Shown here piece after piece: positions 14,876 to 60,429 of a stretch of 64,000 nt of DNA. The stretch is from Eledone cirrhosa. Its lineage: Eukaryota. Position numbers and translations under genes: made by a program. Below the pieces are notes generated by a model. It saw nothing but the letters and a program-made list of their open reading frames with translations, was not told the origin of the DNA and made no database searches. Numbering within the stretch: position 1 is the first letter of the stretch; every line of letters starts with the position of its first letter. The stretch is from NCBI GenBank assembly GCA_964016885.1, contig OZ024746.1:93496001-93560000 (forward strand), written 5' to 3'.

Positions 14876-15248
14876 AGGAATAAAAGTCCTTCCAGTCATT
14901 ACATTTAACTTATAATACAAAACAGATGAAAGATCATGACTGATGCAGTAATTGAATCTATGTCTTAATTGTTTATGAAAAAAAAAAGTGAAATTTTCCT
15001 TACTTTTCCTTAACCTCCCTCCCTCTCTTTCTTTCTTTCTCTTTTACAATCACTTATGTTTCATATTTATATCTTAATACATCTATATTGACTACTCATT
15101 CTTGTGGCCATCAATACTAAGTAGATATATACATACATATATATGTACATATATATATATATATATATATAACGAAGGAGTTGTGGTAAGGAACCAGATG
15201 GATCATAACGCACCAGAGTACTCAATACTTAGGGTAGTAGAGTGGGTA

Positions 15249-15363
15249 ATAGGAAAATGTTCAAGACCCCGTCGGCAGAGCTCAAGCCGTTTCGACGGCT
15301 ATTTCAGTCCAGAAATAGCCGTCGAAATGGCTTAAACTCAGCCGTCAGGGTCTTGAACATTTT

Positions 15364-15368
<5 letters not shown>
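15249..15368. repeat. 120-bp hairpin/palindrome abutting (TA)n
   Basis: 57-bp arms (ATAGGAAAATGTTCAAGACCC...GACGGCTATTTC / GAAATAGCCGTC...GGGTCTTGAACATTTTCCTAT), 6-nt loop, about 6 mismatches. Confidence 0.9.
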
Positions 15369-15443
<75 letters not shown>

Positions 15444-15477
15444 AAGAAATTAAAAGATGGTTAAAAAAAGTTCCATA

Positions 15478-15548
15478 TATTTTATTATGCGCATTTCAAA
15501 AACAAATATCATCCTGGGACGATAGTTGCGTTCTCATCAGATAAAATA
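15478..15548 (-). ncRNA. Type I hammerhead ribozyme (left arm)
   Basis: Reverse-complement twin of 15580-15650; one variant converts a U-G to a C-G pair in stem II. Confidence 0.75.
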
Positions 15549-15579
15549 AGGTAACATGATATGATGCCTAAAAATACCT

Positions 15580-15650
15580 TATTTTATCTGATGAGAATGC
15601 AACTATCGTTCCAGGATGATATTTGTTTTTGAAATGCGCATAATAAAATA
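15580..15650 (+). ncRNA. Type I hammerhead ribozyme (right arm)
   Basis: TATTTTAT-CTGATGA-[36-nt hairpin]-GAAA-TGCGCA-TA-ATAAAATA: 8-bp stem I, palindromic stem III ATGCGCAT, predicted cleavage after 15642. Confidence 0.8.
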
Positions 15651-15775
15651 TATGGAACTTTTTTTAACCATCTTTTAATTTCTTCTTATATATACTCCCG
15701 TCCAATAAACTGTTGAGTGTTACTTATCTGATATATGCATAGTTTTATTGTTCTACAATAAAACTCACCTCCTAC

Positions 15776-17714: not shown

Positions 17715-18580
17715 AAGCCCTTGGACTTTGCGTTCACCGCCATCTACCAGCTGGGCATTAGTATCGATGGAACATCCACCTCGGCGTTCTATAGAGGGCT
17801 AGTGGAGGGAAAGAGCGACGACGTTCTCGGGGAGACTCTGGGCGTTGAAGACGATCAGCTGTTCGCTCTCTTCAAGAGAACTTTCAGACCGGGGCCTATG
17901 GACAACTTCCAGAAATCTCTGGCCTGACAGTGCTACCGGGATGGGGGGGGGGGGGGGGGGGGGGGGCGTTACTAGTTTGGGATAAGCTCTACAGGCACGG
18001 AGGTGCTGTCAGCCGAGCCTGTTCGAGATGCGCGCAGGGCGACGAAGCTGTCCTGCACGCACTCGTTCAGTGCCCGAGTATTGCTGACTTGTGGAGCTAT
18101 GTCGAACAGCTGCTGTCGCGTGTAGGACGGATCCGGTTATCGACTGAGGCCATTGTGCAGATAATCCCGCCATCCTCCTTTAAAGAGGAGGAAGGGCAGG
18201 CAGTTTTCATCTGCCTGGTGGCCATGGCGAAAGAGATTGTGGTGGACAAGGTTGAAAGGGTTGAAGACGGACACTTTCCTCTTCGGCCAATCCCAGATTA
18301 ACTTTTTCAAGTTTCACTTGAAGAGGAAAATCAGGGTGGAGAGGTAAGTGCTGCCTTCTAGCAAGTTTGTTGAAAGGTGGGTGAATGTAGCGAGAATGGT
18401 CCGAATGAACGGGACCGCTCTGAATATACGCCTGTAGTTTCAGAAATGGAAAAATTGAGAGAGGACGCTTGCCCTAGTGGTCAGGGTGGCCGTTGTCTTT
18501 TGTGTGGTTTTTGCCACGAGTAACCCTCAGAGGTTTCACCCCTATTGGAGAATTTTTAAATTGTTTCAATTTTCATTTGT

Positions 18581-20309: not shown

Positions 20310-20918
20310 TGTGTGCTGGGTGGCCTGGACCTCTGGAAGGGTACCTAAGCAATGGCAATCAGGAGTGATAATCCCAATTTTCAAAAAGGGAGACAAGAGA
20401 GATTGTTCCAATCACAGAAGGATCTCCTTGTGAAGCCTCCCTGGTAAAGTTTATGCTAAGTGTCTGGCAAAGAGATGCAGGAAGATTGTCAAGTCCAAGT
20501 TAGCTGATGAACAGTGTGGTTTTCTACCCAGGATGTAGCACAACCAACCAAATATTCATACTGTGGCAGGTTTTTGAGAAATCGTGGGAGTATTGCCAAG
20601 AAGTATATTCTTGTTTTGTAGACCTTGAAAAGGCATATGACCCTGTTCTTCGAGACCTGCTGTGGAAGGCTGTGCAGGAGTATGGGATTGATGGTCAGCA
20701 CCTTGCTGCTCTGATGTCTCTGTACAAATGCCCAAGTATTTGTGTTTGGATAAATGGTGCTAAATCTAAACCATTCAATGTGGGAGACAGACTCCACCAA
20801 GGGTGGGTACTGTCACCACTCCTGTTCATTATTTACATGAACAGGATTGATATGTGCAACCGGGTTGGAAGTGGTATCATGGCTGGTGGATGTAAAATCA
20901 GTTGGCAGGAATTTGCAG
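20310..20918 (+). pseudogene. RTE (Expander-like) reverse transcriptase fragment
   Basis: WQSGVIIPIFKKGDKRDCSNHR.ISL...EQCGF..GCSTTNQIF.L...FVDLEKAYD...QGWVLSPLLFIIYM; truncated at the FADD motif by a (GGT/GAT)n array. Confidence 0.9.
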
Positions 20919-20919
20919 G

Positions 20920-23165
20920 CAATGATGGTGATAATGGTGGGGGTGGTGGTGGTGGTGGTGGTGGTGGTGGTAATGATGGTCAGGATAATGGCAGTGGCAG
21001 TGATGATGGTGGGGATAATGGTGGTTGTGATGGTGGGGCATAATGGTGGTGATGGTGATGGTGGTGATGGTGGTGATAATTGTGGTGGTAGTGGTAATGG
21101 TGGGGATAATGGTGGAAATGGTGGTGGTGGTAATAGTGGTGAGGATAATGGCAGTAGTGGTGATGATGGTGGGGATAATGGTGGTGGAGGTGTTGATGGT
21201 GGGGATAATGGTGGTGATTGTGGTGGTAATGGTGGTGGGGATAATGACAGTGGTGATGATGATGGTGGTGGTGGGGGGGGGGTCTGGCAAGGATAATGGT
21301 GAAGTTGATAAGGATGAGAATGATGAAAACGAGATATTGGCGATGGTTCTAATTGAGAAGATAATGAGAGCTATTTGATTTTTATTGATTTGATTGTATG
21401 ATAATATCCCTGCTACCACTACTACCACCACCACCCCATCACCACCACCACTACCACCGCCTCTACTACCACCACCACCACCACCACTACCACCACCACT
21501 GCCACTACCACCACCACTACCACCACCACTGCCTCTACTACCATCACTACCCCCCCACACACACACACCACTACCACCACCACCACCTCTACTACCATCA
21601 CTACCCCCCCCCAACACCACTACCACCAACTCTACTACCACCACCACTATCACCACCACCACCGCCACTACCACCACCACCACCACCTCTACTACCATCT
21701 CTACCCCCCCCCCACCCCACCACCACCTCTATGTTATTAGTATTGTCTCTTTACATGTGCCATTTACAACTATTTAACATTAAGAATACAGAAGATATGG
21801 TGGAGAAATATTTTAATGTTAAATATATGATTTCTTTTGATACGAACCCACCCTAAACTAACTTTCATCACCATCATCACCACCACCACCATCATCACCA
21901 CCACCATCACCACCACCATCATCATCACCACCATCACCACCACTACCATCACCACCACCACCATCACCACCACAACCATCACCATCATCACCACCACCAC
22001 CACCACCACCACCACCACCACCATCACCACCACTGCCATCACGCCCACCATCATCATCACCACCACCACCATCACCCCCCCCCCCATCACAACCCCCCCC
22101 CACACCACCACCACCACCATCACCACCACCACCACCACCACGACCATCACCATAACCACCACCACCATCATCACCACCACCACCACCAGCATCACCACCA
22201 CATCCACCACCACCACCAACACCACCATCACCACCACCATCACCACCACCATCACCCCCACCACCACCATCATCACCACCACCACCACCATCATCACCAC
22301 CACCACCATCACCACCACCACCACCACCATCACCCCCACCACCACCATCATCACCACCACCACCACCATCATCACCACCACCACCACCATCATCACCACC
22401 ACCACCACCACCATCATCACCACCACCATCACCACTACCACCATCACCACCACCACCATCATCACCACCACCACCACCATCACCACCACCACCACCACCA
22501 TCATCACCACCACCACCACCACCATCATCACCACCACCATCACCACCACCACCATCACCACCACCACCATCATCACCACCACCACCACCATCACCACCAC
22601 CACCACCACCATCATCACCACCACCATCACCACCACCACCATCACCACCACCAACACTATCACCACCACCACCATCATCACCACCACCACCACCATCATC
22701 ACCACCACCATCACCACCACCACCATCACCACCACCACCATCACCACCACCACCACCACCATCATCACCACCACCATCACCACCACCACCATCACCACCA
22801 CCACCACCACCATCATCACCACCACCATCACCACCACCACCATCACCACCACCACCATCACCACCACCACCATCATCACCACCACCACCACCATCATCAC
22901 CACCACCACCACCACCATCACCACCACCACCACCACCACCACCACCACCACCACCACCATCATCACCACCACCACCACCACCACCATCATCACCACCACC
23001 ACCACCACCACCACTATCACCACCACCACCACCACCACCACCATCACCACCATCACCAGCCCCACCACCACCACCATCATCACCACCACCACCACCACCA
23101 CCACTATCACCACCACCACCACCACCACCACCATCACCACCATCACCAGCCCCATCACCATCATC
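20920..23165. repeat. Trinucleotide arrays: (GGT/GAT) 20920-21290, (ACC/ACT) 21415-21730, (CAC/CAT) 21866-23165
   Basis: Direct inspection. Confidence 0.95.
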
Positions 23166-24660: not shown

Positions 24661-26231
24661 TGGGTGCTTTTTGTCATGACACCAGTCATTAGATGAAAGC
24701 GTCCATGTTTCACTTCCATATAGCAAGATTGGTAGAAGTTCAATATTTGATTACAGGTCTACCAAATATAAGCAAAATATTTGAGTACATGGAATCTATG
24801 AAAATATTCAACAAGAGAAACTTCTGTTTTATAGCTTCCCTTGTTTCTTATTTTTATTTTCTGATGATATAATCTGACTCCCAGTGGCCTCCTTCAATAT
24901 TTGACATTTAAAAAAAAATATTCTTTGGTTTTTTTATCCCTTTAAAATTTTTTTAATTACTTTTCTCACTAGCTCTTTTTGATTACCAAATGTAAGGAGT
25001 ACTCGATACTTCTCCTAGTCTGTCATGACTTACTAGCTCTATATGGACTTTTAAATTAAATAAATAAATAATGTATAAATATTTTTTTAATTTATTGGCC
25101 ATGCGGGTCAGAACCAAAACACCCTAGATCCAGAGCCTATCACCCTCTCCCCTTCCACCTCCCTCCTGTCACCCAAGAGTCCTTGCTTTTTCCCTTCTTT
25201 TTCTCTCATGGCATTTATAGTCCTTTCCTCTACTTTCCCATACAACCAGATCTACTCTTCTTTACCTCTTCCCCCTTTTTCTCATTACTTAATTTTGTTT
25301 TTATCTCTCTTTTTCATATTTATCTAATTATCAAGTTTTTAAGCCAACTCTGTGAGTGAAACACGTGTATTGAGAATAAGCATGTTATTCATAAACTAAC
25401 TACCAAAAATTAAATAATAGAATAAATATTTGTTGATATAACAACATATATAACTGAATATTGTGGTGTGTAGAAATGAGAACTTCTATGTAGTTTCTCA
25501 GATTGCAGATACTAAACTCATCTCATATTGAAATTTACTAGGCTACTCCTTGTCAGCAGTCTTGTAACTACTACTGTTTACCCCCTCCTTCCTATCATTC
25601 CATCACTGTTTTCCATTTCACTGTCATAGTCACACTCTCCTCTCTTTCATCCTCTTGGCTGTTCACACTCTCAATTATACATGCATTGAAGAAAGAGAAA
25701 CTATGTAGAGTGGTGAGAACTCTTTAGCCTTACAGTGCTGGGGTCATGAGAAGATGCACCCAGTATACTTAGTAAAGTGATTGACAATTGGTTTAGAGAG
25801 GATTCTTCAATCTTATCAAAAAAGATGGCGAACCCTACAGTGCTGGTCCTATGATAAAATATATCCTGTCACTCTGTGAAGTAGTTGGTATTAGGAAGGG
25901 CATCTAGCTGTGGAAACCATGCCAAAATGGAATGATGAATAAGATGTTGTCCTCTGATCCATTTGAGAAGACATTAACTCTGAATAAGAACTAATTTGAA
26001 CCATAATGATTTATTTATCTCAAGCCAACATGAAAAGTGGGCTTAAAAGGATAATCCAAATGTTATTGCCATGAAATTAGGTCTCTGGGAGATTTTTACT
26101 CATTTTTCCACAAGACTAAATACATGGATAGGAGTTTGCATATTAATTTTTCTTGAAATACAACTTAAATATTTCATATTTAAGTAGCTTCTTCAGAGTT
26201 GAAGGAAAGATTGGGCAGAATGCCAGCCTTC

Positions 26232-31019: not shown

Positions 31020-31845
31020 CTAGGGGAGGGTAAAATTCCCGAGATCCATGGACGAGTTCTCTCCAGCGGTCTCTGTCCCTCATTATCGCTGCCATGTCCT
31101 GCATCTCCAACAGACCAGTGTCTGTCCTTAGGGCATCAACATACTTTAACCTTGGTCTTCCTCTTCCAGTGTGTCAATGTAGGGGCTCCCACAGGAGCAC
31201 TGAGTGCAATTTCAACTCTGGATGTCGGTGAGCATGTCCAGCTAAACTCAGTCTCCTCTGTGTCACTTTTGAGCTGACTTTTGGGAGGCTCCCATACAGC
31301 TCTGAGTTTTTCATCCTCTGATTAATGTTCAGAGCCATCCTCAGCATTCTCGTGTAGCACCCTTCCACCATCTGAGTGAGTTTCTTGGTCAGTGTCCAAG
31401 TCTCAGACCCGTACAGCAGCACAGACTCCATGACAGCAATGAAGAGGCGGATTTTCAGGTCTTTACGAAGGTCCGACTTCCACACCGATCTCAAGCTGTG
31501 GCACACCACCCAGGCTTTGCCCTTCCTCTCAACCACATCATCTTCCATATTCCCAATCTTTGCTCCCAAATACAGGAAGCCCTCAACCAATTCTAGCGGC
31601 TTCCCGCCTACATTAGTGATCCCCTCCGGCTTCCCGCCTACATTAGTGATCCCCTCCGGCTTCTCAACATTCCCTACCAGATATTTTGTTTTAGTCTTAT
31701 TCATTCTCAGCCCCACACTCATCGACACAGTCTCAACCTCTTGCATCAAATCCTCTGCCTCCTTCACTGGATTTGTCACCAAAATTATGTCGTCGGCAAA
31801 TTCAGCATCTGATACCTTTTTCGCCTTAACTCTCCTGCTCTGAGC
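31020..31845 (-). pseudogene. RTE-group LINE 3' part (RT motif FADD to C-terminus)
   Basis: [10 protein letters not shown]...[10 protein letters not shown]...FLYLG...[22 protein letters not shown]...RRLSLAGH; in-frame 30-bp duplication [10 protein letters not shown] x2. Confidence 0.9.
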
Positions 31846-31927
31846 ATATATATATATGTGAATATATATATATATATATATATGTATATATGTGAATATA
31901 TATATATATGTATATATATATATATGA

Positions 31928-32003
<76 letters not shown>

Positions 32004-32317
32004 CATCTCCATTTAACATCAATTTTCTGTTAGACAGGTCATCGACGTTATGTGACAGGTCAAGCTAGTTGGCTGCACTGTACTGTCCTCAAATGGCAGG
32101 GATTTTTACAGCTCGATGCCCTTCCTAACACTAAAATTGTTTACATATGGTGCAGCCAACTGGCCAGACCCTCCTCATAATGCTACCACCCAGCTCCACA
32201 CTGTAAACATGGTTAGTGTTAGGAAGGGCATCCAGGAGCTGTAAAAAAACCTGCCTAACCCATGCAAGCATGGAAAAATAGATGTTAAAAGGTGATGATG
32301 ATGATGATTTCCCACCC

Positions 32318-44793: not shown

Positions 44794-44829
44794 TCTTCTG
44801 ATGAAGGACTAGCGTCCGAAACGTTAAGA
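44794..44829 (+). ncRNA. Minimal type I hammerhead ribozyme in a pLTR-like fragment (44750-44914)
   Basis: TCTT-CTGATGA-aGGACtagcGTCC-GAAA-CG-TT-AAGA; palindromic AACGTT stem III typical of Penelope-element HHRs. Confidence 0.8.
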
Positions 44830-49741: not shown

Positions 49742-50705
49742 ATCATCATCATCATTATCATACGTCCACTTTTCCCTGCTTGCAAGGGTGGGACGGGTCT
49801 TATTCAGCACAGCATCTCTCCACTCGTCACGGTCCTTCGTCATCTCCACCGTGAACTTCAATGATCTGAGGTCTGTTCTCACCACCTCCGCCCATGTTTT
49901 TCATGGTCTACCTCTACCACGTCTTCCTTCAACTGGCATTTCCTGACACTTCTTCACCCATCGGTCATCCTCCATGCGCATCACATGTCCATACCACCTC
50001 AGTCTCCTCTCCCGTACACTACATTCTATCCCTCTCAGACACAGTTTCTCTCTCAACACATTTATGCTTGGTCGTTCATGCACATTGACATTGCACATCC
50101 AACGGAGCATGCTTGCCTCATTTCTCTCCAACTGTCGCATATCCTCTGCAGTTGCTGTCCATGTCTCACTACCATGCAGCATCGTGCTCCTCACACAGGC
50201 ATCATATAACCGGCCTTTCGTACGCAGGGAGAAACCCTTCTTCGTCAGCAGAGGAAGCAGCTCCCTAAACTTCTTCCAACCCATCCTTATTCTAGATACT
50301 ATGGCCTCGGAACACCCTCCTCCCATGCTAATCTGATCTCCTAGGTACCGGAAGCTATCCACCACTTCTATAGCGCCCTCCTGCATTTGAAAAATGTGTC
50401 TATCAATGCGACTTCTACTGTCTAATTTCCCTGTACACCTACTGCATACATATTTCTCCCTACCTGTTAGTTTGCCTGCTATCCCGCTACATCTCTTGTG
50501 TACCCAGGATCTGCATTGTGTGCATTTTATAGAATTTATGCCAGTTCCTTTTCTGCATATCAAACATGGCCATTTCCCTGACGGAATCAGAGTTTTGTCC
50601 TCTTTTCTACTCATCAACACTTTTGTCTTAGCTAGGTTCACTCTCAGTCCTCTTGCTTCCAACTGCTGTTTCCATAGCCAGAATTTATTCTCTAGCTCCT
50701 CTAAA
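49742..50705 (-). pseudogene. RTE family A LINE, 5'-truncated, with PHD-like Cys/His finger following the RT core
   Basis: GLRVNLAKTK...WPCLICRKGTGINSIKCTQCRSWVHKRCSG...YVCSRC...FRYLGD...LHGSETW...RRLRWYGHVMRM; (GAT)n tail. Confidence 0.9.
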
Positions 50706-50868
50706 AATACACAAGATCGTACAACCATTTCAGCCCTTCATATCAGCACCTCTACTGTCCTAGAACCAGTACTGTAACTATTAGCACCACCAACATAATT
50801 AACACTACCTGATCTACAGCTCTGATTACTCCCACCACTACCAGCATTGTATTATTACCACAAATGTT

Positions 50869-53545: not shown

Positions 53546-53629
<84 letters not shown>

Positions 53630-53632
<3 letters not shown>

Positions 53633-54394
53633 TAGTTAAGCAAAACAAGACCACAAATTTCACAAGGAAGACATTATTAAAAGATTGTCAACATATTTAG
53701 TTTGATGCAAAGAATGTAGAGAATAATAATAATAATAATATTAATAATAATAATGCCCGTTTACAATTCTTTCGCTACTCCTTATAATATTTCAAGATCA
53801 GATGACTATGTATCATAATTGATCTGGTTCAGTTGAAAATAATTAACATATTTAAAAAAAACAGAGTGGCTCATCGGAACTCAAAGGAATATAAATTAAA
53901 ATAATGTTACATAATATAATGTTCCATATATTAGTTTTTACTATGGTGCCTTTGTTTCATCAGCTGTCAGCCATAATAAAGCAGTACTCATCTGCCTCAG
54001 TACTCAGATCTCACACAATGCAGCCTCGACAGATGAGTACTGCTTGATTATGGCTGACAGCTGATGAAACGAAGGCACCATAGTAAAAACTAATATATGG
54101 AACATTATATTATGTAACATTATTTTAATTTATATTCCTTTAAGTTCCGATGAGCCACTCTGTTTTTTTTAAATATGTTAATTATTTTCAACTGAACCAG
54201 ATCAATTATGATACATAGTCATCTGATCTTGAAATATTATAAGGAGTAGCGAAACAATTGTAAACGGGCATTATTATTATTAATATTATTATTATTATTA
54301 TTCTCTACATTCCTTACATCAAACTAAATATGTTGACAATCTTTTAATAATGTCTTCCTTGTGAAATTTGTGGTCTTGTTTTGCTTAACTAATG
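53630..54394. mobile_element. 765-bp near-perfect foldback element adjoining (TA)n
   Basis: Arms 53630-53994 and 54030-54394 (365 bp, about 6 mismatches seen), 35-nt spacer, no ORF. Confidence 0.9.
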
Positions 54395-54575
54395 AATATT
54401 TCCAGCTCTGCGCACCTAACTTCTGCATGAACCCAGCCACCTAGCTGCTTTCTACTGCATATTGCACATTGAGCACATGCCTTTACGCTTTGGCTTCTAA
54501 CTAACTCACCAATCTTTCCTCTCATATCTCCTCTACTATCTCAATCTCTCTCTTTAAGATTGGTTACTCTTGAAC

Positions 54576-54651
<76 letters not shown>

Positions 54652-54652
<1 letters not shown>

Positions 54653-55229
54653 TAGCCGAATTACCCGCGCCTTGCTGCGTTTCACACATTTTTTTGTAAG
54701 AAAATGATGATTGATTTTAAATCAGTGATATAATTTATGGAGAAAAACTCTGCATTTCAATATTACTCAATGTAAAATGTTATGCATGAAAAATTGGAAA
54801 ACATTATTTTTTGTAATATATCAAATCGAAATTACATTATTAAATCTTATTCTTATTTTGTTTCTTGTAATTAATTTTTTTCAAAATATCAATTCAAAAC
54901 TTGATCATTATTTTATTTGGGCTTCCAATATTTTCACTATAGGGGGTTTAACCCCATTAGGATGTCTTAATATTATTGAAATTTGCTGAAATTTTGTGAA
55001 TAGGTCATTTACCTATGGTTTAAATATCATATAAATCGAAAGGAAAAAGTTTCAGCAGGGGTTTGTGCCCCCGGAGAACCCTTTGATTAAAATGAAATAT
55101 ACTTATCCAAGTACCCTGGGCAATGTAGTTTCAGAATATATATAGTTAGGGGGAGTCTATCTCAAAAACCATAGCAGGAGTTTGTGAACAAACAAACAAA
55201 CAGACAGACAGGAGTAGAGTGTATTTAAT
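54652..55229 (-). mobile_element. Non-autonomous Helitron-like element
   Basis: On minus ends with a GC-rich hairpin-like segment then CTAG-T; (CTGT/TTGT)n near the other end. Confidence 0.55.
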
Positions 55230-55529
55230 AACAAAGTGGAGCTGTTGCATAATAGATTTATTGTTCAATCCTGGTTACAAATGTTTCAACAAACAGCTGG
55301 TTTCTGATCTGGATGATGCTCCAGACCAGATTCCAAAACGGTCTGATCCTCAGATAAGTGTTTTCTCAACATCTGATATAGGTTTTTGTTGTGATAACAC
55401 TGGTCTGAGGATCAGGCTGTTTTGGAATCTGCTCTGGAAGCATCAATCTGGATCATGAGCCGGCTGTTTGTGAAACATTTGTAACCAGGATCGAACAATA
55501 AATCTCTTATGTAACACCTCCACTTTGTT
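55230..55529. mobile_element. Diverged foldback element with a hammerhead motif in each arm
   Basis: ~142-bp arms (AACAAAGTGGAG... / ...CTCCACTTTGTT), short spacer 55372-55386. Confidence 0.8.
55400..55488 (+). ncRNA. Type I hammerhead-like ribozyme with ~60-nt stem II
   Basis: CTGGT-CTGAGGA-[long hairpin]-GAAA-CATTTG-TA-ACCAG; the twin on minus (55271-55358) has a better stem II (TCTGGTCTGGA/TCCAGATCAGA) but a broken stem I. Confidence 0.65.
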
Positions 55530-55711
55530 CTTGTTATATATGTTTATATGTATATATACATATATATAAATCTTATTTCTTTTCTATTATAAGTTGAGCC
55601 AACTTATGCAGCTTCATATGCAAATGAGATTAATCACCTCATTTACACAGACGTAAAACTATATATTCTCGGCTGTTTTCAAGTCCAGCAGTTGCAAGTG
55701 TGGGAGGGATC

Positions 55712-55749
55712 GTCCTGACGATGGCCAATCAGGCCTGAAATGCAAAGAC
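55712..55749 (+). ncRNA. Degenerate minimal hammerhead motif
   Basis: GTC-CTGACGA-tGGCCaatcaGGCCt-GAAA-TGCA-AA-GAC; conserved U16.1 replaced by A. Confidence 0.5.
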
Positions 55750-55828: not shown

Positions 55829-55900
55829 TTCGCATAGCCACGGCTTCCTAAAATCGTATTTCTTTCGAAATACGAAATTTATATATATATATATATATAT

Positions 55901-56003: not shown

Positions 56004-56074
56004 GTCGTCAAGTATTAAATTTGTAGAAATTTGAAAAAAGAAAACAAATTTCTACAAATTTCATACTTGACGAC
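56004..56074. repeat. 30-bp inverted repeat hairpin beside (TA)n
   Basis: GTCGTCAAGTATTAAATTTGTAGAAATTTG / CAAATTTCTACAAATTTCATACTTGACGAC. Confidence 0.9.
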
Positions 56075-58393: not shown

Positions 58394-58718
58394 GAAGGCG
58401 CATGGCTTAGTGGTTAGAGCATTGGGCTTGCAATTGAAAGGTTGTGAGTTCAATTCTCAGACCGGGTGATGTGTTGTTTCCTTGAGCAAGACACTTTATT
58501 TCACATTGCTCCAGTTTACTCAGCTGTAGAAATGAGATGATAGGGACTGGGGGTCCCTATCATTCCACTGCAAAGTGGTCGTGGAGGTGCCACGGCAATA
58601 AAAGCACCCAGCAAATGAGGTTGGTGTTAGGAAGGGCATCCAGCTGTAGAAATCAAGCCAGAATCAGTTCCTGTCCCACCCTAGCAAGCAGAGAAAAGCG
58701 GGCGTAAAATGATGATGA
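58394..58718 (+). mobile_element. CORE-type SINE family B, full length
   Basis: Collinear with 43887-44212. Confidence 0.9.
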
Positions 58719-58786
58719 TATATGATAAGGATTCGGGACATCGACAGCTGAGTTCCTGCCATGTCAACAGCTATATATATATATAT

Positions 58787-59059
58787 AATATATTAACAAA
58801 TGGAAAGTATATTTATAAAACCATATTTATTTCATTATACATATTTCAAGGACACCAAAGCAAATTATGGTGCGCTTTCATCAGATATATATAGATCAGT
58901 TTTATAAAACTGATCTATAATATAGATCAGTTTTATAAAACGGATCTATATTATATTTTATCTGATGAAAGCGCACCATAATTTGCTTTGCTGTCCTTGA
59001 AATATGTATAATGAAATAAATATGGTTTTATAAATATAGTTTCCATTTGTTAATATATT
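58787..59059. mobile_element. Foldback element with hammerhead motifs in both arms and a doubly palindromic spacer
   Basis: ~100-bp arms; spacer = two copies of palindrome TATAGATCAGTTTTATAAAACTGATCTATA (58890-58919, 58921-58950). Confidence 0.85.
58954..59018 (+). ncRNA. Type I hammerhead ribozyme (right arm)
   Basis: TATTTTAT-CTGATGA-[30-nt hairpin]-GAAA-TATGTA-TA-ATGAAATA; twin on minus at 58828-58887 has a shortened stem I. Confidence 0.7.
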
Positions 59060-59149
59060 GTATTTTTACTTCAAAAATTTGTTGAGTGCTTTATATCAGT
59101 TATAAAAAATATTTGCTTGTTGTATCCCAACAAATTAAATATAACTTCT

Positions 59150-59235
<86 letters not shown>

Positions 59236-59327
59236 CTGTTGACATGGCAGGAACTCAGTCGGTGTCCTGAATACATAATTCTATACATACATATATACAT
59301 GTATACATACATACATGTATACATGTA

Positions 59328-59447
59328 TACATACTCAGACACACAGGTATAGGTGCATGTGAGTGTGCAGACACTTATATACATATATATATATATAAGA
59401 GTCTGCGCACTCACATGCACCTACACCTGTGTGTCTTTGAGTATGTA
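59328..59447. repeat. Inverted repeat element centred on (TA)n
   Basis: CATACTCAGACACACAGGTATAGGTGCATGTGAGTGTGCAGAC / GTCTGCGCACTCACATGCACCTACACCTGTGTGTCTTTGAGTATG. Confidence 0.85.
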
Positions 59448-59459
59448 TGTATGTATGTT

Positions 59460-60031
59460 ATCTCTTTCTCTTAATTTTGAGTATATTTTTTTGACCGGCC
59501 AACTTCCTGGTGGCAAGGTTGTAAAAGAAAAGAAATTGTCATCCCTTGAATCGCAAGAATGTTTTGCAAATTTTGAAGGTGCCAGCTATCGCAGCCATTT
59601 GTAGACTATGAATTAGGGAGCTGCGCTCTTTGTCCTCAAATCCAAGTTCAGTCATACTTTGGTCCAAACGGGTTAGTATATAACCCGTAGCTCCAATAAT
59701 GATAGGTATGAAGCTAAAGGTGTATCTTGGATACTGGATTTTTAAACTCCTCATCAATGGTCCGTAGATGTCCTCCTTCTCCTGTATTTTTCTGACAACG
59801 TTTACACCAAGTGGGCAGCTGATCTCCACAACAGAACACGTTTTCAATGTGTGGTCCCAAACAACAATATCAGGCCGGTTGTGCTTTAATTTGGTGGCAG
59901 TTTTTATTTTCAGGTTCCACCAATATTCCTTGGTGCCATCTGTCTCAATATATTCTTCCTCATTTGTTGTTAATTTTGTTTTCCGAAGTGCGTTCCAGAT
60001 GGTTCTAGCTATCCCATCGTGTCTCATGGGG
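59460..60031 (-). pseudogene. R4/Dong-clade non-LTR retrotransposon, 5'-truncated, restriction-like endonuclease domain and 3' UTR
   Basis: RHDGIAR...HNRPDIVVWD...VEISCP...EKEDIY..L...IPIIIGATG; open frame 59539-60027; flanked by (TATG)n on both sides. Confidence 0.85.
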
Positions 60032-60429
60032 TATGTATGTATAGAATTATGTATGTGTAACTGTAGATAGAATTATATATATGGATTTATGTGCAGAAAT
60101 AAACATATATTATATAAATATGTGTGTATGTATGTGTCTGAGAGAAATATATATTGATGTGTATATATATATACATATATGTATGTATATGTGTATATAT
60201 ATATATATATACATGAGAGAAATATATATTGATGTGTATGTATATATATATATGTGTATGTATGTGTGTATATATGTATATATATGTATTTATATTGTAT
60301 CTTTATATATATATATAGAGAGAGAGAGAAAATTGAGGTTGGTAATGGCACATGGAATATATAAGAGACAGAATACTTTTTTGTGAAAAAACATATAATT
60401 TTATAAGGTAAGGAAATAATGAAGGGTAT

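Follow-up and report, generated by a model that had tools for sequence, protein, structure and literature searches.

How one stretch of DNA comes to carry two outward-facing hammerhead motifs on the arms of a foldback with a palindromic middle is the question raised by positions 58787-59059 of the window, the whole 64-kb stretch of Eledone cirrhosa DNA analysed here. The locus at 58787-59153 is most likely a non-coding insertion into a (TA)n microsatellite, and we put at roughly 0.8 the probability that it is a Penelope-like element (PLE) insertion made of two hammerhead-bearing terminal regions (pLTRs) standing head to head, one of them tailed. The foldback that a preliminary description had placed at 58787..59059 is borne out, with the inverted repeat 58787-58887 / 58959-59059 having 101-bp arms and two mismatches (58807/59039 and 58855/58991), and the whole element is symmetric about position 58920 over 133 aligned columns with four mismatches and one 6-nt gap. 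The element was also said to start in (TA)n and to end at 59059. The left end does lie in such a tract, but the right arm continues for another 94 nt as an unpaired tail before (TA)n is reached, and the insertion is longer by that amount. Its features are as follows.

58731-58772 and 59235-59273, no strand: outer inverted repeat of about 40 bp enclosing the TA tracts (38 columns, two mismatches, one gap)
58772-58787, no strand: left (TA)n target tract, in which the short arm terminates
58787-58889, minus strand: short, tail-less arm, an inverted, 5'-truncated copy of the element's end
58828-58887, minus strand: left hammerhead motif, core at -58884, predicted cut at 58836
58890-58919, no strand: P1, a perfect 30-bp palindrome (15-bp unit, inverted plus direct)
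58920, no strand: symmetry centre of the whole foldback, a single A inside TATA-x-TATA (58916-58924)
58921-58950, no strand: P2, a 30-bp palindrome with one mismatch (58942), extending to 40 bp (58916-58955)
58932-58961, plus strand: 5' strand of an extended hammerhead stem I, with 10-bp pairing of 58932-58941 to 59025-59034
58936-59059, plus strand: portion of the long arm mirrored by the short arm
58954-59018, plus strand: right hammerhead motif, type I with minimal palindromic helix III, core at 58962-58968, predicted cut after 59010
59060-59153, plus strand: 94 nt of unpaired tail, homologous to that of the element at 15441 (15695-15775)
59068-59089, plus strand: bulged hairpin at the tail start (RCTY, stem, loop, stem, 2-nt bulge, RAGY, R)
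59111-59138, plus strand: terminal hairpin of the tail (RNAfold); in the 15441 tail a hairpin of another sequence occupies the corresponding position
59154-59234, no strand: right (TA)n target tract

The outer inverted repeat is probably part of the pre-existing target locus and lies outside the element, which would thus have landed at the centre of an earlier hairpin locus. Compared by eye, the 3' region of Naiad_Obim and Naiad_Ovul contains 10 nt and then about 9 nt of this repeat in the same order, which we regard as a lead. A generic search of the window for inverted repeats was swamped by microsatellites. Within the 64 kb there is no second copy of the element and one relative, at 69% identity.

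The two cores are CTGATGA sequences at +58962 and -58884 and face outward, as the preliminary description had them. A descriptor for minimal type I hammerheads finds five matches in the window, compared with a mean of 0.07 (maximum 1) in 100 locally shuffled windows, and four of the five are both arms of this element and both arms of the one at 15441. On the plus arm the descriptor match predicts cleavage at the same site as had been proposed, after 59010. The right motif has an 8-bp stem I (58954-58961 : 59011-59018), GAA at 58999 and a self-complementary 8-nt helix III, and folding predicts that the substitution at 58991 weakens its stem II (58969-58998) from -8.2 to -3.1 kcal/mol and leaves it misfolded. 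In the left motif stem II is predicted to be intact at -8.2 kcal/mol, and stem I is cut down to 3 bp; the TATTTTAT stem-I strand of the earlier description is found on the right arm but not on the left. Rfam returns no hammerhead among seven matches to 58925-59165 at E<=10, nor among the 150 of 172 whole-window matches listed, which are mostly microsatellites matching miRNA models, and the hammerhead call thus depends on the descriptor. Unconstrained folding of either arm did not give the active hammerhead fold, and constraining the arms to that fold raises the energy by 2.3 and 4.3 kcal/mol. A solo minimal hammerhead with 4-bp stems I and II and a 4-nt palindromic helix III is present elsewhere in the window, at 44794-44829 (plus strand), and there are further solo core-like motifs at 55715 and 2372.

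These predictions suggest that both hammerhead copies are impaired. A read-through transcript of either strand is predicted to form a hairpin of about -190 kcal/mol in which both cores are buried, and as the two motifs lie on opposite strands, dimerisation within one RNA is impossible; hammerhead folding is possible only in transcripts that start in the centre. The framing of the locus as a double hammerhead therefore overstates its function, and the separate lesion in each copy argues against a working double ribozyme. Most likely the foldback is an inert scar with no function.

The arms had been described as largely unrelated to those of the element at 15441, and this does not hold. The long arms of the two elements are colinear over the whole stretch between stem I and the TA junction (128 identities in 186 aligned positions over 210 columns), with a score of 147 against 77±9 in dinucleotide shuffles, none of 1000 of which scores as high; the tails alone score 52 against 24±5.5, again with 0/1000 as high. 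Among 12,647 real windows the 15441 tail is the top match to the tail studied here (60.5; next 53.5), and for the post-cleavage part 15441 ranks first among 12,627 (92; next 83.5), margins that are modest because the sequence is AT-rich. Local alignments of the other long-arm pairs are weak, with uncontrolled scores of 15-43. Five foldbacks are found in the window (at 15249, 15441, 53625, 55227 and 58787), the four others being:

15172-15368: short foldback (15249), 54-bp arms with six mismatches, a left-hand tail of about 78 nt with a bulged hairpin, no hammerhead core recognised
15441-15775: sister foldback, 113-bp arms with two mismatches, a 21-nt asymmetric junction and a tail of about 81 nt running to (TA)n
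53625-54583: large foldback, 365-bp arms with six mismatches and a 35-nt junction, starting in (TA)n
55215-55550: older foldback (55227), 18 mismatches in 139 columns, CTGAGGA cores at +55405 and -55353, long arm on the left with an interrupted tail

In all five, one arm stops in a TA-rich tract and the other runs on. The sister foldback has an 8-bp stem I in both of its hammerheads, and the short foldback lies directly to the left of the TA tract that also hosts it. The large foldback has about 185 nt extra on its right, opening with the bulged hairpin, together with a CTGATGA 31 nt from its junction, a variant CCGATGA core at 54147 and a palindromic helix III near 54251. Neither it nor the older foldback was recovered by the strict hammerhead descriptor, and their cores were called by eye. 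Three foldbacks have a clear core on each arm, with 47, 51 and 77 nt between the two, which locates the junction just upstream of the hammerhead. Small inverted repeats at 59319-59456, 56004-56074 and 55850-55880 are centred on (TA)n or abut it, which suggests that fold-back events are frequent at such tracts.

Perfect palindromes with zero-length loops are a known type of artefact, which speaks for a chimera of assembly or amplification (MDA or read fold-back). We nevertheless consider such an origin very improbable. The separate lesions in the two hammerheads argue against a library chimera, and neither arm copies the present state of the other: the left arm has at 58855 the base compatible with stem II and, in the 15-bp unit, the majority base, and the right arm keeps the stem-I strand that comparison with the 15441 element indicates to be ancestral. 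The sequence on either side is unique and belongs to a single TA locus that the element splits, and the unequal arm divergence among the five foldbacks points to genuine events of different ages.

The features that point to a PLE are a type I hammerhead with palindromic helix III in a terminal repeat (by descriptor), an inverted, 5'-truncated copy adjoining the 5' end head to head, a tail extension at one end, and a (TA)n target. For PLEs, a tail of 30-40 bp at one end is described and, at the 5' end, a copy that is inverted and 5'-truncated (PMC8557442); in the same source an inverted copy is attached to Penelope-13_HM, a consensus of the Hydra clade, and both strands carry a hammerhead. Curated annotation of Octopus vulgaris lists 31 recently active Penelope-like families (PMC13282606). 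No PLE coding sequence (reverse transcriptase plus GIY-YIG) was found in or beside the element: the GIY-YIG family matched none of 104 complex reading frames of at least 70 aa (104 of the 326 frames of at least 60 aa in the window were scanned), and Pfam gave no PLE protein in the scanned frames. With no linked reverse transcriptase or GIY-YIG domain the identity rests on non-coding anatomy, although absence of the reading frame is expected because the element is a 5'-truncated end.

The closest counterparts are Pen2 and Pen3a of Adineta vaga (PMC3846280), in which there is likewise a head-to-head truncated end, a one-sided tail, a palindrome at the inverted junction and an AT-rich target, and for which self-priming was proposed; they differ in that here there is no reading frame, only the terminal region being present, and the palindrome is doubled into four units. 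The palindromes published for pLTR 5' ends measure 18 bp and, nearly perfect, 38 bp, and a bidirectional TATA was noted there; the extended P2, at 40 bp, is comparable. The tails are longer, at 94 nt here and about 81 nt at 15441 against the published 30-40 nt (PMC8557442). The dual motifs of Schistosoma mansoni (PMC4209133) are similarly type I with palindromic helix III, a typical trait of minimal PLE hammerheads, and a long helix II, in opposite-strand pairs derived from truncated PLEs. The 77 nt between the cores here is less than the roughly 100-700 bp given for those pairs, and stem II closes with A-U in place of the usual G10.1-C11.1, with an extended stem I being predicted here. The head-to-head layout, one-sided tail, (TA)n target, opposite-strand hammerheads and junction palindrome are thus already published for PLEs (PMC3846280, PMC4209133, PMC8557442).

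Three other kinds of element were weighed against this anatomy. Long inverted repeats, a lack of coding capacity and a TA-rich target would suit a class II foldback element or MITE that had captured a hammerhead. We consider this improbable, since the repeat is not terminal but has the homologous 94-nt tail outside it on one side, GT and not TA follows the right repeat end, the arms reach the centre, and in several unrelated families the junction is likewise found immediately upstream of the hammerhead. Such foldbacks are nevertheless likely to be mislabelled as MITEs in automatic annotation. Hammerhead motifs of opposite polarity without a reading frame could also recall an integrated ambisense viroid-like or retrozyme-like RNA with a hammerhead in each polarity, but there is no head-to-tail repeat in the window, the hairpin predicted for either strand sequesters the core, and both copies carry lesions. 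Minimal motifs with palindromic helix III need dimers, and the partner must have the same polarity (PMC4209133), whereas here it lies on the opposite strand; an origin of this kind is very doubtful. The non-LTR retrozymes (10.64898/2026.07.22.740005) are also non-coding, contain a type I hammerhead and are proposed to be PLE-derived. They were rejected as a match because their units are in head-to-tail tandem, and the present arrangement is head-to-head with no direct-repeat copy in the window.

Assignment of the PLE insertion to the Hydra clade is tentative, at a little under an even chance. That clade has canonical hammerheads, inserts into (TA)n and includes a member in Octopus bimaculoides, Hydra-1_Obim (PMC8557442), and the likeness to it consists of the (TA)n target and a canonical hammerhead 100-200 nt from the 3' end; the tail-start hairpin described below also speaks for membership. 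The bias toward microsatellites is also linked to Neptune in the same source and is therefore not exclusive to Hydra. Compared by eye with the Hydra table (PMC8557442 File S2), helix III is 8 nt here against 9-10 nt, and the stem II region of 30-36 nt (30 nt in this element) is longer than those tabulated, departures that make the clade uncertain. By eye the element also differs from the Hydra-1_Obim sequence. The clade is defined by protein features (a C-terminal endonuclease lacking CCHH, a DKT motif and a CxCX5C linker), and this locus has no reading frame. Of two short element motifs compared with the available part of the PMC8557442 supplement, one was absent and the other gave a chance match in a Chlamys sequence. 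The Naiad clade is defined as lacking a canonical hammerhead (PMC8557442) and was rejected, the canonical core being present here.

The centre of the foldback was first described as a 60-bp spacer of two 30-bp palindromes, one perfect and one with a single mismatch. The two palindromes are as described, but the centre, at 61 bp (30+1+30), is no spacer, since the symmetry extends over the whole element. It is itself symmetric about 58920 (31 pairs, one mismatch), which makes it four alternating copies of a 15-bp unit and means that the arms reach the middle. A perfect palindrome arm of at least 15 bp was seen in 0/20,000 shuffles of the element, and the window holds no other non-microsatellite palindrome with a loop of 0-1 nt and a perfect arm of at least 12. 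The 10-bp complementarity of 58932-58941 to 59025-59034, which was noticed post hoc and is attained in 72/20,000 shuffles, extends stem I and suggests that P2 is, in its right half, native to the element; the 15441 element has an analogous distal stem I pairing. Within this apparently ordinary element sequence there is a TTTATAAA palindrome.

Both strands of P1 and P2 contain TATAAAA (+58903, +58934, -58906, -58937), and 29 nt separate the boxes of P1 on the plus strand and P2 on the minus strand from the extended stem I that starts downstream of each. It is speculation to treat these boxes as promoters, as the motif occurs 34 times in the window. They could nonetheless favour a retro-MITE, in which the whole palindrome is mobilised as a non-autonomous unit with a fixed centre, possibly with outward transcription from the central TATA boxes; pLTRs mobilise DNA in trans (PMC3846280). 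That reading is unlikely, although not to the degree of the chimera or the MITE: the motif's frequency counts against it, as do the lack of a second copy in 64 kb and the damage in each hammerhead, and the five foldbacks have five different, asymmetric centres, albeit in separate families.

For the PLE insertion, the following sequence of events can be proposed. A PLE protein, a predicted dimer, cuts AT-rich DNA on both strands and extends both, and on uncleaved RNA it begins reverse transcription at two internal sites bracketing the tail (PMC11167929). The two target 3' ends would accordingly prime cDNA at a distal site, 59153, and a proximal site, 59059, which flank the tail-start hairpin. 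Both cDNAs would cross the uncleaved hammerhead and stop no more than about 40 nt upstream of the core, either on reaching the 5' end of the RNA or where stem I begins at its base. The end of the long-arm cDNA would then snap back at the native TTTATAAA palindrome and copy 20 nt to give P2 (extended, 58916-58955), and a second fold-back at TATA-x-TATA (58916-58924) would give P1. The P1 end may then have been joined to the short arm through TA microhomology at 58885-58893, or synthesis may have continued as copy-back. In an equally parsimonious variant the first fold-back would have taken place in a parent copy and been inherited as a palindromic pLTR 5' end.

Self-priming or foldback synthesis had been put forward as the builder of the centre and as a hint of how these elements form. 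It is the natural reading, the seeds TTTATAAA and TATA-x-TATA both being found; the hint is not new, self-priming having already been inferred in 2013 from palindromes at head-to-head Penelope junctions (PMC3846280). Given a PLE origin, serial snap-back in one event stands at nearly an even chance, a palindrome inherited from the parent copy followed by one inversion is a tentative second reading, and some other route is unlikely. This single locus looks the same whether snap-back was repeated or an inherited snap-back was followed by a new inversion. DNA folding predicts the snap-back hairpins to be unstable (-0.5 and 0.0 kcal/mol), with a predicted fold other than the snap-back. At breaks, inverted duplications of about 5-34 bp arising by fold-back are known, as is synthesis that starts from transient hairpins (PMC11724301, PMC5728401). 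No description of a doubled junction palindrome was found in the open-access text searched.

The bulged hairpin at the tail start bears on how the short arm was made. It is present in four of the five foldbacks (59068, 15694, 54405 and, on the minus strand, 15243), where it begins 0-15 nt past the end of the short arm; in the fifth, at 55227, the first 8 nt of the tail are identical to those of the 15249 tail, and an interruption follows. Its descriptor was fitted post hoc, after the foldback loci and the Hydra sequences had been seen, and by count it is not enriched in the window (six matches against 3.0±1.8, maximum 10, in 100 shuffles), its position alone being notable; two of the six matches, at 26163 and 58426, are unconnected with foldbacks. 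In the Hydra-clade consensus sequences (PMC8557442 File S7, by eye) the hairpin layout follows the hammerhead in three of six and opens a fourth. A bulged RCTC...GAGC hairpin stands about 40-50 nt past the cut in Hydra-2_Amil, Hydra-2_Ajap and Hydra-1_Crog (one mismatch), and the RCTC...GAGC hairpin is at the 5' start in Hydra-1_Ajap; the hairpin is not clear in Hydra-1_Amil, and the Hydra-1_Obim sequence stops before the position. Hydra-2_Ajap and Hydra-1_Ajap match the layout only with a TA bulge, beyond the strict pattern. An AC-rich stem loop at the reverse transcription start site is described for one element (PMC11167929), and no description of a cross-family tail hairpin was found in the open-access text searched; this hairpin may be one observation that is new. 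It is a candidate RNA element for setting reverse transcription start sites, and taken by itself, without any promoter part, a role as the signal that positions the reverse transcriptase is conceivable, if somewhat short of an even bet.

The ending of the short arms 0-15 nt before the hairpin in four of five foldbacks fits a programmed start site, and given a PLE origin we favour, with some reserve, second-strand priming as the source of the short arm. A point against it is that the reverse transcription start sites of the green-anole PLE are without homology to the target, unlike the TA end of the 15441 short arm. Copy-back, in which one strand is primed on RNA and the short arm is a DNA copy of the long-arm cDNA, made after snap-back or RNA self-priming and ending where it meets (TA)n by microhomology, is a possible but less probable source. 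After a second snap-back at 58920, synthesis would run through P2 and on into the arm uninterrupted. The 6-nt gap in the alignment of the arms lies in TA-rich, slippage-prone sequence, and a self-priming model has been proposed (PMC3846280). At the end of the 15441 short arm the microhomology is 8 nt of TA, a finding that DNA copy-back with end-joining would also explain. Against copy-back, the microhomology is only partial at the junctions at 58787 and 53629, the short-arm ends have a fixed place relative to the conserved hairpin, and in vitro a PLE used two start sites and extended both strands (PMC11167929). Routes besides these two are very unlikely. A more far-reaching proposal, that the foldbacks are programmed double "strong-stop" products in which a hairpin conserved across divergent Hydra-like families sets two reverse transcription starts, both cDNAs run off shortly before the core of the hammerhead is left behind on its upstream side, and iterated snap-back seals the ends, with the doubled palindrome serving as a bidirectional promoter and the whole as a self-spreading unit, seems to us quite unlikely.

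Taken singly the locus is an ordinary, if tidy, PLE insertion scar, and its value is as a marker. The origin of PLE inverted ends and tails has been called open (PMC8557442, PMC11167929), and five short foldbacks per 64 kb would correspond to thousands of junctions genome-wide, which could separate two-strand priming, copy-back and inherited palindromes.

The surrounding window is repeat-dense, with a GC content of 0.20-0.53 per 2-kb window, long microsatellites and fragments of LINE-type reverse transcriptase. SINE-like, tRNA-derived sequence at 58395-58720 ends in (ATG)n just to the left of the outer repeat and includes a weak Rfam tRNA match (58403-58460, 27.9 bits). LINE fragments lie at 49904-50737 (minus), 31177-32064 (minus), 20504-21040 (plus) and 17849-18298 (plus), and by Pfam they comprise a PHD finger inside a reverse-transcriptase-like frame, two RVT_1 matches and one zf-RVT match. 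To the right of the element, at 59542-60072 (minus), a 177-aa frame has no Pfam match and has unnamed eukaryotic look-alikes at 0.97; it may resemble the restriction-like endonuclease C-terminus of Dong/R4-type LINEs.
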